Below are positions 43,693 through 48,392 of a stretch of DNA of 64,000 nt, in pieces; position 1 is the stretch's first letter, and every line of letters starts with the position of its first letter. The DNA comes from Bacilli bacterium. Its GTDB lineage: Bacteria; Bacillota_I; Bacilli_A; RF39; UBA660. Made by a program: the position numbers and the translations under genes. Below the pieces are notes generated by a model. The model saw only the letters and a list, made by a program, of their open reading frames with translations. It was not told where the DNA came from and did not search any database. Where the stretch lies: assembly GCA_900768345.1 (NCBI GenBank), contig CAAGCO010000020.1, forward strand, positions 68,002-132,001. The letters run 5' to 3'.

Positions 43693-43823
43693 AAATCACC
43701 ACTTTAATTATACTATATTTATATATTTTTTTCTATCTATTACATTAATAAATGTAAAGTTAATTTTATATTGCATAATTAACATTTTATGATAAAATTA
43801 AATCATAGTAGGAAGAGTGAGCA

Positions 43824-45494
43824 ATGAAAAACATTTTTAAAATTTTATTAGTTATGATTTTATCATTTTCTTTAAGCATGGTTTATGCATCACAAGAAGA
43901 AATTGATAATGCAAAAAAAGCAACTGAGGAATATTGCGAAGAAGATAAAGAGAAAAAAGGGTGCATTTATGATTCGAATAATATACTTTATACAGACAGT
44001 GGAACAGTTAGAAACGAAAATGCTGCCGTCAGTTTGACTTTGAGTGGACGAAAACTTGTAAGAGGATATCAAGCAGCTGATGCAAATGGAAATATGGTTT
44101 TTGCTGGTTGCTATAAGGCAAATGTTAGTAATGTTGATTACTGGGGAGATGGAGACTACTACATATTTAAGGTAGTTAAGTTTAGTGGAAGTAGTTGTTC
44201 AACAGTTGCATCAGACATTGTACCAGCAAAAGGAACTAAATGGAAATTTGGCATATTTAATGGCGAATATGATGGAAATAATGGTATAGGAAATAATATG
44301 GCAACATACGAAGGATGGACTGCTAAAAATGGTGGAGGATGTCCACTAATGTTTGGATTAACAGCGAATACAAGATGGTATACAAGTTCAAAAAACACCT
44401 ATGTTTTTTCAGATGATGCCGCAGGATTTAATTTACAAGTATTCTCATTTTTTGGAGATGAAGAGTACAAACAATCTCCTGGATGTACAATAATGGATAA
44501 AGACGGCCACGAAGAAGCAGAAGAATGCTTTAATAATGCGGCAAGTAAGATAGAAAGCTATAGTTGTCCAAGTGATATGTCAAAACTTTCAGAAATGGCA
44601 ACTGAATTAGAAAAATATCAAACAGAATGTAAAAGTGAATTTAAAAAATTATATTCAAAAGGTTTATTAGAGTCAGAAGCAGAAGAATTTTCAACATTGC
44701 TAAAGAATAAAGTGAAAGAAAAGATTAACTCATGTCAGTATAGCAAATGTAATATATCTTCTACACAAATTCAAAAAATAATTGATGCAAAAGCAGGAAC
44801 AAAATGTGAAAAAGGTTGTTCAATCTCTATGAAAGAACAAAGTGAAGCAGAAAATGCACAATGCTATTGTTGTGGAGGTAGTAGAGGATGTTCATATACA
44901 TGGACAGATAAACCATCAAGTTCTTGTAGTAAATCTAATAAAACTAAAGACAAATGTGTCGGTACAACCGATACAGATGTATGCTTAACTTGTCTTGAAG
45001 ATGCATATAAAAAAGCAGGATTAACTAGTGCTCAAAAGAAATGTATGATTGAATCTGATATAAAAAGAGCACAAGCTGAAAGCAAAGTAACATCTGATAT
45101 AGATAAACAATTTGATGATCAAGTGCAAAAAGACCTTGAAGAAAATAGACAGACAAGAGATGAAATAGAAAAATATGAATTTAATGCTGATTTACCAGCT
45201 CAAGGATTTGGAGAAGGTGGAGAAAGCTGTGAAGCAATTGTAGGGCCAAATATAGCAAAACTTATAAAAATGGCATTAAATATTCTTAGAATAATTGGTG
45301 CAATTATAGCAATAGTAAATGGTATGATGACATTAATACCAGCAGTTGTAAACAAAGATCCAGAAGCACTTAAAAAAGCTGGAAATAAATGCGTAAAAAT
45401 TGCCGCAATATTATTAGTAATTGGTGTATTCCCATCAATATTAAGAGTTATAGGTAAAATATTTGGTTACGATTTAAGCTGTATATTTGGTTAA
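43824..45494 (+). CDS. secreted Cys-rich protein with conserved C-terminal two-helix membrane domain
   Basis: Signal peptide MKNIFKILLVMILSFSLSMVYA, >30 Cys in the ectodomain (CCGGSRGCSY..., CVGTTDTDVCLTCLE), C-terminal ~95 aa paralogous to the next ORF. Confidence 0.6.
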   Translation: MKNIFKILLVMILSFSLSMVYASQEEIDNAKKATEEYCEEDKEKKGCIYDSNNILYTDSGTVRNENAAVSLTLSGRKLVRGYQAADANGNMVFAGCYKANVSNVDYWGDGDYYIFKVVKFSGSSCSTVASDIVPAKGTKWKFGIFNGEYDGNNGIGNNMATYEGWTAKNGGGCPLMFGLTANTRWYTSSKNTYVFSDDAAGFNLQVFSFFGDEEYKQSPGCTIMDKDGHEEAEECFNNAASKIESYSCPSDMSKLSEMATELEKYQTECKSEFKKLYSKGLLESEAEEFSTLLKNKVKEKINSCQYSKCNISSTQIQKIIDAKAGTKCEKGCSISMKEQSEAENAQCYCCGGSRGCSYTWTDKPSSSCSKSNKTKDKCVGTTDTDVCLTCLEDAYKKAGLTSAQKKCMIESDIKRAQAESKVTSDIDKQFDDQVQKDLEENRQTRDEIEKYEFNADLPAQGFGEGGESCEAIVGPNIAKLIKMALNILRIIGAIIAIVNGMMTLIPAVVNKDPEALKKAGNKCVKIAAILLVIGVFPSILRVIGKIFGYDLSCIFG

Positions 45495-45495
45495 C

Positions 45496-45524
45496 TTGAA
45501 AAAATATTAAAAATATGGTACAAT
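45496..45524 (+). promoter_or_regulatory. promoter of the small paralogue (TTGAAA-17-TGg-TACAAT)
   Basis: Extended -10 with TG. RBS AGAGGGG before ATG 45558. Confidence 0.5.
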
Positions 45525-45557
45525 ATACGAATCTTTAAAAAGAGGGGTAATAGGTTC

Positions 45558-45980
45558 ATGAAAAAAAAGTATATAATTATATTATTAATAATGATAACTG
45601 CATTTATAGGAATTAAAAACATAAATGCATCAGAAATAAAACCAAGTGATTTACTGAATGTAGTTACAACAGCAGGAGAATTACCATCATCTGGATTTGG
45701 CAATGCAGGAGAAAGTTGTGCAGACTTAGTTGGTGAAAATTTAGGTAAGGTAATAAAACTAGGCATTAATATATTAAGAATAGCCGGCGCAATTATAGCA
45801 ATTGTAAATGGTATGCTAACAATGGTTAAAGCGGTAACCTCAAAGGATCCAGGAATGATAAAAAAAGCCGGAGAAAAATGCATGAAAATGGGTATTGTCT
45901 TATTAGTTATAGGTGTATTTCCAACAGTTTTAAGAGTAATTGCTAAACTATTCGGTTACGATTTAAGTTGTATATTCTAA
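45558..45980 (+). CDS. small secreted two-helix membrane protein, paralogue of the C-terminus of the 556-aa protein
   Basis: Signal peptide, then GFGNAGESCADLVGENLGKVIKLGINILRIAGAIIAIVNGMLTMVKAVTSKDPGMIKKAGEKCMKMGIVLLVIGVFPTVLRVIAKLFGYDLSCIF, near-identical to residues ~455-556 of the upstream protein. Confidence 0.6.
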   Translation: MKKKYIIILLIMITAFIGIKNINASEIKPSDLLNVVTTAGELPSSGFGNAGESCADLVGENLGKVIKLGINILRIAGAIIAIVNGMLTMVKAVTSKDPGMIKKAGEKCMKMGIVLLVIGVFPTVLRVIAKLFGYDLSCIF

Positions 45981-46007
45981 AAAAGAGTGAAAAAACTCTT
46001 TTTTTTA
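45981..46007 (+). terminator. rho-independent terminator
   Basis: aaaagagt-gaaaaa-actctttt followed by tttt. Confidence 0.7.
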
Positions 46008-48020: not shown

Positions 48021-48392
48021 ATGAACGTAGATGAGCAAAGAGTAATAAAAGAAATGATAGAAATATATAAACCGGATGACTATGACTGGATGGGTAGTAA
48101 AATTAGTAAAAAGAACGTTCTAACATTTCACCATATAGTTAAAAGAAAAACAGGAAGAACAATAAGAGAAAACGGTGCTTTACTTACACAAAAAAGTCAT
48201 GAAAGACTTAATAAATTAGAAGCACATAATCAAGATTTATTTGAACGTTGGCAATGGTTATTTGTAAGAATAAATTGTTCTGGTATGCCACCAAGTGAAG
48301 AGTTAATAAATGAAATACAAGCATTAAAAAAAGAAACAAGTGACTTTATATATGGAAAAACCTCAGAGCTAAAATTAATAAAAAATAGATAG
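48021..48392 (+). CDS. HNH endonuclease-domain protein
   Basis: LTFHHIVKRKTGRTIRENGALLTQKSHERLN: His-Asn-His-type motif. 123 aa, inserted between tsf and rpsU. Confidence 0.5.
   Translation: MNVDEQRVIKEMIEIYKPDDYDWMGSKISKKNVLTFHHIVKRKTGRTIRENGALLTQKSHERLNKLEAHNQDLFERWQWLFVRINCSGMPPSEELINEIQALKKETSDFIYGKTSELKLIKNR

Follow-up and report, generated by a model that had tools for sequence, protein, structure and literature searches.

A secreted protein pair with a common, putatively VirB2-like C-terminal hairpin module at the recU-rpsB locus of a Bacilli bacterium

The gene pair and its shared C-terminal module

The subject of this analysis is a pair of neighboring genes for secreted proteins in a 64-kb stretch of a Bacilli bacterium genome (64,000 nucleotides of contig CAAGCO010000020.1; hereafter the window), whose products end in a common module that appears to be remotely related to the VirB2-like pilins of type IV secretion systems (T4SSs). 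Both open reading frames (ORFs) lie on the same strand, flanked by the divergent recU-ponA pair and by rpsB-tsf, and the window features a G+C content of about 23-33%. The large gene (43824-45494, forward strand) encodes a protein of 556 amino acids (aa), which consists of a signal peptide (aa 1-22), a Cys-rich ectodomain (aa 23-455), a disordered linker (aa ~452-467) and the C-terminal, pilin-like hairpin module (aa 456-556; 45189-45491, forward strand) with C469, helix 1, the basic loop KDPEALKKAGNKC, helix 2 and the terminal YDLSC including C553. The small gene (45558-45980, forward strand) encodes a protein of 140 aa, which is composed of a signal peptide (aa 1-24), a 30-residue linker and the module with C54, helix 1 (aa ~60-95), the loop SKDPGMIKKAGEKC, helix 2 (aa ~98-131) and the end YDLSCIF with C138. 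Both ORFs are present as described in a sequence-only reading of this DNA, which had credited the large protein with more than 30 cysteines; the actual count is 25.

The small gene was proposed in the same reading to possess its own promoter and terminator, and both signals were found again. The sigma-70-like promoter (45496-45524, forward strand; TTGAAA, 17 nt, TG-extended TACAAT) is a consensus match only, with 10 of 12 consensus positions matched and an extended -10 element, and the number of such sites detected in the region by this consensus scan was little above the shuffled expectation. A Shine-Dalgarno sequence, AGAGGGG, is located at 45541-45547. At the 3' end of the gene, folding energy indicates an intrinsic-terminator-like hairpin with a U-tract (45979-46006, forward strand), in which a 10-bp A/U-rich stem (45979-46004; dG -9.4 kcal/mol, z -2.4) is followed by the U-run. 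The consensus scan made no terminator call at this hairpin, since the stem holds just two G-C pairs. A 130-aa antisense ORF (45491-45883, reverse strand) overlaps the small gene and is most likely a by-product of the sequence or composition of that gene, not a gene itself.

The signal peptides noted on both proteins were confirmed and are, as read from the sequence, of the Sec type with AXA-like cleavage sites, i.e., VYA/S in the large protein (...MVYA/SQEE) and INA/S in the small one (...NINA/SEIK). Other ways of surface anchoring were considered as well. A lipoprotein anchor is ruled out by the absence of a lipobox Cys from both signal peptides. No LPXTG motif or other known C-terminal sorting signal is present; the two long helices lead to a terminal YDLSCIF. 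With just two residues behind its Cys, this end does not qualify as a CaaX-like signal either.

The common C-terminal module, already described in the sequence-only reading, was recovered by BLASTP as a single ungapped alignment of 100 residues at the C-termini (65% identity, 83% positives, E 3e-44), and outside of it the two proteins have no similarity. A profile hidden Markov model (HMM) of the module family scored the module of the large protein with E 1e-43. Each module comprises two hydrophobic segments separated by a net-positive loop (KDPxxxKKAGxKC; four K/R versus two D/E) according to Kyte-Doolittle analysis. Likewise, AlphaFold2 (AF2) models feature a helical hairpin, with helices at aa 60-95 and 98-131 of the small protein and at aa 475-509 and 513-546 of the large one, so that both methods agree with the earlier description of two hydrophobic helices split by a short KDP...KKAG loop. 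Signal peptide, two hydrophobic helices and a short positive loop, the features of the broad VirB2-like T4SS pilin superfamily, are thus all present.

Across 50 diverse modules of the family, the loop is net positive in 47, and three positions are invariant, namely a Cys immediately ahead of helix 1 as well as the Asp and the Cys within the (Y/F)D(L/I/V)(S/T)C motif at the end. Of the three cysteines previously taken as invariant, the first and the last are so throughout these modules, but the loop Cys varies and is invariant only among close relatives. The spacing between the first and the last module Cys amounts to 84 residues in 182 of 200 proteins. Of 105 bare small proteins, i.e., those without an ectodomain, 103 have all their Cys within the module, and 76 of 95 large proteins have an even count of Cys in their ectodomain. 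Regarding the probable membrane topology, the basic loop would be inside the cell and therefore both invariant Cys would point outward at the ends of the hairpin, where an intramolecular disulfide between them may clasp these ends.

Distribution and variation of the module family

A word-indexed search returned just 22 relatives, all unannotated. An exhaustive HMMER profile search of 1.84 billion representatives yielded 612 matches at E ≤ 1e-3 and 212 at E ≤ 1e-10. Among the 150 best matches listed, the module is C-terminal except in a few truncated fragments, the protein length ranges from about 120 to 966 aa, and nearly all proteins carry a signal peptide. About one third of the family are bare proteins of ~125-160 aa, and the remainder bear Cys-rich N-terminal ectodomains. 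In the 134 full-length members, these ectodomains contain essentially no Pfam domain, apart from isolated matches to LytR_cpsA_psr and DegT in single proteins. The hosts given in the source records are uncultured Bacilli, "Mollicutes", "Tenericutes", Erysipelotrichaceae and Clostridium sp. CAG:1000, and one host with a module gene is represented by a complete chromosome of 1.53 Mb. A tblastn search of plasmids (PLSDB) with the small protein resulted in a single chance match (E 0.9), and thus the family is not plasmid-borne in that collection. Comparison with PHROGs gave weak matches only, to families of no assigned function. Whether the module is lineage-specific had been raised as a question in the sequence-only reading, and the 612 representatives bear this out: the module defines an unannotated family of uncultured low-GC gut Bacilli/"Mollicutes".

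At the recU-rpsB locus, the small gene is the constant element, being found between the two genes in all 18 related loci compared, with module identities of 40-98% (loci from relatives, at recU-rpsB or elsewhere, are here numbered L001 and so forth). Upstream of it, a large module protein is encoded in the window as well as in L005-L014, L017, L025 and L033, whereas L036 features two large module proteins at this locus and L039 none. In L001, a TasA/camelysin-like and DUF6273-containing protein, unrelated to the module family, is encoded downstream of the small gene. As a separate observation, this 406-aa protein (Peptidase_M73, weak match, plus DUF6273) takes the place of the large module gene in L001 (10482-11702) and L039 (2852-4009), and genes combining a type IV pilin-like N_methyl segment with DUF6273 lie nearby. 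DUF6273 is thus attached to two kinds of secretion or anchoring leader in this lineage. A further module protein, the third, of about 405-421 aa was found roughly 70 kb from the recU locus in CABULC01 (L015, 5041-6306), to which the window organism is very closely related, the flanking proteins being 94-100% identical. Its gene, in the vicinity of ileS and nrdD, has a gene of no assigned function on one side and a convergently oriented sigma-factor gene on the other, and its counterpart would, by synteny, lie just outside the window. A conserved ORF of 123-127 aa without a Pfam match on record lies between tsf and rpsU (48021-48392 in the window); it is kept in the syntenic L001 and L005 and missing in L008 and L039, which have other genes in the gap.

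The position of the small gene also bears on the suggestion, made in the sequence-only reading, that it encodes a membrane-inserting toxin, bacteriocin or holin-like peptide, in which case the large protein would be a related effector or carrier. This explanation draws on general shape only, in that the protein is small and secreted, has two hydrophobic helices and is encoded by a gene with a promoter and terminator of its own. Nevertheless, no toxin, holin or bacteriocin family was matched in Pfam, NCBIfam or PHROGs, the neighbors are housekeeping genes, and neither the window ORFs nor the Pfam context of the syntenic L005 include an adjacent immunity, ABC-export or processing gene. Moreover, the core-genome position is strictly vertical, being kept in 18 of 18 loci, and homologues occur within T4SS gene clusters. 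An identity as toxin or holin is therefore regarded as highly improbable.

The large and the small gene both evolve much faster than their neighbors, with the ectodomain as the most extreme part. Compared with L012, the protein identity amounts to 97-99% in the flanks, 95% in the small protein and 94% in the large module, but only 52% in the ectodomain. At the nucleotide level, the identity to the same locus is 95-98% in recU/ponA, 58-70% across about 43800-45200, 95% at the module and 98-99% in rpsB/tsf. Because identity falls abruptly in the ectodomain and recovers at the module, the ectodomain-coding segment (43890-45188, forward strand; delimited by the drop against L012) represents a hypervariable, recombining allelic cassette. 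Sharp borders were also observed on comparison with both L012 and L014, with 58-70% nucleotide identity inside the cassette and 92-99% in recU/ponA and rpsB/tsf. Such a pattern would be typical of a surface-exposed, diversifying domain.

Despite this variability, a real and conserved architecture of the ectodomain is evident from 12 Cys that are invariant over 25 homologues of 29-92% identity. The confident AF2 model of the large protein (predicted local distance difference test, pLDDT, 81) contains a beta-rich domain (aa 61-225), helical regions (aa 226-323 and 382-450) including a long stalk helix (aa 402-450), and a small Cys-knot insert which is missing in some orthologues. No recognizable relative of the ectodomain model was found in the PDB. 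The Cys-knot-like insert, CYCCGGSRGCSYTW...C...C, is encoded at 44841-44978 of the window (aa ~340-385) and occurs in most orthologues, not in those of L008 and L017 nor in P0039; it looks like an indel module within the ectodomain.

Relation to type IV secretion pilins

In the textbook view, Gram-positive bacteria do without VirB2-type pilin subunits in their type IV secretion machines. A review of the field describes these pilins as absent from Gram-positive T4SSs, with Patescibacteria as the sole exception (PMC12857230), in which VirB2-like arrays are located beside chromosomal T4SSs without a relaxase (PMC12102498). Against this background, the only curated models recurrently matched by the module family are of pilin type. 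In Pfam, PF18895 (T4SS_pilin) is the most frequent match, found in 12 of 134 members with a best E-value of 6.7e-5, which is below the gathering cut-off of 26.6 bits. With 14.8 bits (E 0.031), the small window protein aligns to positions 17-71 of the 71 in the profile, and the large one has no match, so that neither reaches that cut-off. The 111-aa protein pil111, a T4SS-cluster relative from L037, attains 24.9 bits over the whole profile. A looser criterion for VirB2-like proteins, i.e., an i-Evalue under 0.001 with coverage of more than 50% of the profile (PMC12102498), is satisfied by some family members and by pil111, but not by the small window protein with its E-value of 0.031. In NCBIfam, the most frequent match by far is NF045849, the "Mbov_0395 family pilin-like conjugal transfer protein", recorded for 26 of 50 modules (best E 1.9e-8). 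This model gives 16.2 bits (E 0.006; profile positions 6-78 of 80) for the module of the small protein and 11.6 bits for that protein in full length; the curated cut-off of this model, which describes ~80-residue proteins of Mycoplasma integrative and conjugative elements (ICEs), is 40 bits, and the context of the window gene is the chromosomal core. As no curated model attains its cut-off, it was fair to call the domain unrecognized in the sequence-only reading.

Comparison at the profile level goes further. An hhalign comparison of the module alignment with the pilin-like array of L037 gave a probability of 97.9% (E 3.8e-13) over 77 columns, which take in the polar loop motif (S/D)xDxxAhxKA beyond the hydrophobic stretches. 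Likewise, hmmsearch with the family HMM recognized the L037 array with E 4e-10 to 1e-4 and P0250 (131 aa), the most distant profile match and itself located in this cluster, with 4.5e-15. The module is hence homologous, at the profile level, to pilin-like genes in T4SS clusters. Solved structures searched with the module profile yielded only a de novo designed helical protein and transmembrane segments of the follicle-stimulating hormone (FSH) receptor, i.e., no real relative, and a Foldseek search of the small-protein model against the PDB gave nothing below E 1. The latter is uninformative, since a helical hairpin is too simple a fold.

From these searches an explanation by convergence may be derived, according to which generic hydrophobic hairpins have come to resemble each other and the family is an unrelated, lineage-specific membrane domain with no assigned role. 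Every match to a curated pilin model is below its cut-off, profile scores are inflated by hydrophobic low-complexity helices, and structure searches are uninformative, all of which would fit. Still, two pilin-like models, curated independently of each other, lead their respective match counts by a wide margin, and the 77 aligned columns include the polar loop motif. In addition, the VirB6-like/PrgI/VirB4 neighborhood set out below is independent evidence which does not depend on the sequence of the module. Convergence is therefore considered improbable, and the module appears to be a remote relative of the VirB2-like T4SS pilin families, probably as a previously undescribed subfamily.

The neighborhoods of module genes in relatives complete this picture. 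In L029 (Clostridium sp. CAG:1000), recG and yebC are followed by the gene of a 329-aa Cys-rich secreted module protein and, directly downstream of it, T4SS genes for a 637-aa polytopic VirB6-like, a PrgI-like and a TraC-like protein, VirB4 and a SpoIID-type hydrolase. The module of the 329-aa protein is 57% identical to that of the small window protein. L041 repeats this gene order, with a 586-aa module protein (E 7e-43) in first place and, further on, the coupling protein VirD4 (184.6 bits) in addition; neither a relaxase nor an integrase was found within 10 kb, and the flanks consist of housekeeping genes. In L037 and L038, four module-like genes in tandem (111, 375, 147 and 131 aa) precede genes of a 902-aa protein, PrgI (27.1 bits in L037, at a cut-off of 27), a TraC-like protein and VirB4. 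The VirB4 proteins of L029 and L037 are 74.6% identical. Hundreds of contigs of up to 1.27 Mb from Clostridium sp. CAG:1000 and near relatives carry VirB4 at 99-100% conservation, as would be expected of a chromosomal core gene there; the best 120 VirB4 matches, to which the listing refers, are all at least 88% identical to the CAG:1000 protein. On contig NODE_10_length_333936, both loci occur together, with the T4SS cluster of L041 at 282-304 kb and the order recU, 123-aa small module gene, rpsB at 47-67 kb. At least two relatives therefore possess a chromosomal FATA-type T4SS, with no relaxase in view, in which the pilin position is held by the module family. The VirB2/TrbC-type likeness noted in the sequence-only reading is thus upheld by the recurrent PF18895 and NF045849 matches, the hhalign probability and the module gene heading the T4SS cluster of CAG:1000. 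Its statement that no secretion-system genes are adjacent applies to the window locus, but not to the family, as members in L029, L037 and L041 have T4SS neighbors of the VirB3, VirB4 and VirB6 types.

Two side observations concern the surroundings of these clusters. The T4SS cluster lies immediately 3' of recG and yebC in L029 (2433-5208) and L041 (2464-5191); T4SS loci of the Patescibacteria class ABY1 are likewise reported to co-localize with recG and radA (PMC12102498). Besides, a putative Tad/Flp-type pilus gene set is situated directly upstream of the pilin-like array in L037 (1-7800) and L038. In L037 it comprises a T2SSE-family ATPase (105.6 bits), putative membrane proteins of 302 and 262 aa, a 92-aa Flp-like protein and two TadE-like proteins, and the region also encodes a DUF5411/Peptidase_M15 wall hydrolase.

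Among known systems, the PF18895 pilins of Patescibacteria (candidate phyla radiation, CPR) and other monoderm T4SS loci are similar in their Sec signal peptide, two hydrophobic helices and short basic loop, in having genes that adjoin PrgI/VirB3-, VirB6- and VirB4-like ones within a chromosomal FATA-type T4SS for which no relaxase was seen (PMC12102498), in the several divergent paralogues per genome and in the recurrent sub-threshold profile matches. In contrast to them, the module family stays below the Pfam cut-off throughout, is hosted by Bacilli instead of Patescibacteria, possesses an invariant Cys pair at the hairpin ends and mostly bears Cys-rich N-terminal ectodomains of 100-850 residues. 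Its copies are furthermore dispersed to core loci such as recU-rpsB and not only arrayed by virB4. The best NCBIfam match, NF045849 (Mbov_0395/MMCAP2_0565), stems from a related host group, i.e., Mollicutes and walled relatives. Nevertheless, the module scores under its curated cut-off, and the NF045849 proteins of about 80 residues belong to mobile ICEs, whereas module genes reside on the chromosome, are inherited vertically and in many cases include a large ectodomain.

The Gram-negative pilins VirB2, TrbC, TraA and TrhA likewise are membrane-stored helix-loop-helix subunits with a positively charged loop, and a VirB6 platform gene is found nearby (PMC12857230). Their N- and C-termini are close together, being covalently joined in TrhA, where this is required for the biogenesis of the pilus, and by a peptide bond also reported for TrbC by mass spectrometry (PMC12037004). 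The module family differs in the monoderm envelope, the lack of a detectable sequence match to solved pilins, the proposed closure by a disulfide instead of a peptide bond and the ectodomain fusions, and a pilus built from it would be hypothetical. In the VirB2/VirB5 paralogue arrays of the Bartonella Trw and the Anaplasma T4SS, variable pilin-type genes are thought to vary the T4SS surface for host binding or immune evasion (PMC12857230, PMC12102498), to which the hypervariable ectodomain cassette is comparable. There, it is the pilin or VirB5 that varies, and its genes stand in tandem inside the T4SS locus, whereas in the module family the hairpin is conserved, the variation resides in the appended ectodomain and the variable locus is remote from the T4SS.

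Proposed role and significance

With a slightly better than even chance, the gene pair encodes a bare pilin-like subunit and an ectodomain-bearing subunit, both VirB2-like, which serve a chromosomal T4SS as a surface structure. Each protein would be exported by Sec and its signal peptide cleaved, after which the C-terminal module would insert in the membrane as a helical hairpin with the short basic loop in the cytoplasm and both ends outward. The invariant Cys that precedes helix 1 would be disulfide-bonded to its counterpart located 2-3 residues from the C-terminus, and this clasp would stand in place of the head-to-tail cyclization of TrhA and TrbC pilins, leaving the N-terminus free for fusion. 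The 140-aa protein would be the bare subunit, which is conserved, equipped with its own promoter and terminator and located beside the highly expressed ribosomal genes rpsB-tsf. The 556-aa protein would be the same subunit bearing a disulfide-rich, fast-evolving ectodomain. Both might be recruited by the VirB6-like/VirB4 machine of a chromosomal FATA-type T4SS, with no relaxase in view, encoded elsewhere in the genome; the parts of such a machine encoded in relatives are a VirB6-like platform, a PrgI/VirB3-like and a TraC-like protein, VirB4, a SpoIID-type wall hydrolase and VirD4. In the resulting pilin-based surface structure, bare subunits may space out or dilute the ectodomain-bearing ones, and the variable ectodomain may contact another cell, a surface or a partner. 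The common module, its family and homology to pilin-like genes of T4SS clusters, the neighborhoods in relatives, the Cys pattern and the ectodomain variability were observed, and the membrane topology, the disulfide, use of a T4SS by the window pair, co-assembly of the two proteins and an adhesive role are inferred.

Several points weigh against this proposal. Neither of the window proteins attains the gathering or curated cut-off of any curated pilin model, and no pilin was found among solved structures by sequence or fold, the hairpin being too simple for informative searches. To our knowledge, no filament has ever been demonstrated for a Gram-positive T4SS. A VirB2-type pilin with an N-terminal fusion of 300-800 residues is not described in the literature searched, and polymerization of subunits with such large fusions is hypothetical. 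In the 64-kb window, tblastn detected no T4SS gene, and the T4SS link of the window pair has therefore to be deduced. The co-occurrence of the module locus with a T4SS was seen only in a relative; there, the small protein shares 43% identity across the module (47% overall with the profile query). Moreover, module genes are scattered over several unrelated chromosomal loci, e.g., the one near ileS and a sigma-factor gene in L015, which would fit a general membrane anchor as well.

Such an anchor is the content of the main alternative explanation. The module, though descended from a pilin, would act independently of a T4SS as the C-terminal membrane anchor of Sec-exported, disulfide-rich surface proteins in a lineage with little sortase-type anchoring, with the small paralogue oligomerizing, stabilizing or regulating them. 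The module genes at the window, L015, L026 and L027 without a T4SS gene within 6-10 kb are in agreement with this, as are the lack of T4SS genes in the window as a whole and the C-terminal position of the module on very diverse ectodomains in proteins of 120-966 aa. The related uncultured orders RFN20 and ML615J-28 were, in addition, reported to be without srtA/B sortases (PMC10868615). Nevertheless, the anchor leaves unexplained why module genes head VirB6-like/PrgI/VirB4 clusters in two distant relatives, which is the usual position of a pilin gene, and why the strongest conservation is seen in the bare copy, which keeps a fixed core locus and a promoter of its own. It likewise does not account for the strict conservation of about 100 residues including loop and Cys pair, as a simple anchor needs hydrophobicity only. 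A T4SS-independent anchor is thus possible, yet on the unlikely side.

The proposal of pilin-like subunits that serve a T4SS can be extended to a more far-reaching one. Walled, small-genome gut Bacilli with kinship to Mollicutes would then build a T4SS-dependent pilin polymer, with the 140-aa protein as shaft, adhesin subunits with interchangeable ectodomains, the disulfide clasp and a role in attachment or exchange as has been proposed for Patescibacteria. This extension is speculative and rather doubtful. If true, the polymer would be the first VirB2-type filament in Firmicutes, and a T4SS that looks relaxase-less would mediate attachment or exchange between cells, as needed for a lifestyle that depends on a host or partner.

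With regard to its significance, the module family would put pilin-like subunits in a second monoderm group, namely abundant uncultured Bacilli of the human and animal gut, at least two of whose relatives feature the chromosomal T4SS cluster in which no relaxase was seen. A hairpin that acts as C-terminal carrier of large, disulfide-rich and rapidly diversifying ectodomains does not feature among the designs reported for conjugative pilins in the literature searched, and the conserved Cys pair sits where some pilins are cyclized. Several hundred protein clusters, unannotated in the searched databases, would gain a name and a testable role, and the variable members would be candidate adhesins or antigenic-variation loci in organisms that may be without sortase anchoring. 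Besides, the family could serve as an accessible counterpart with which to compare the essential T4SS and pilin arrays of epibiotic Patescibacteria.

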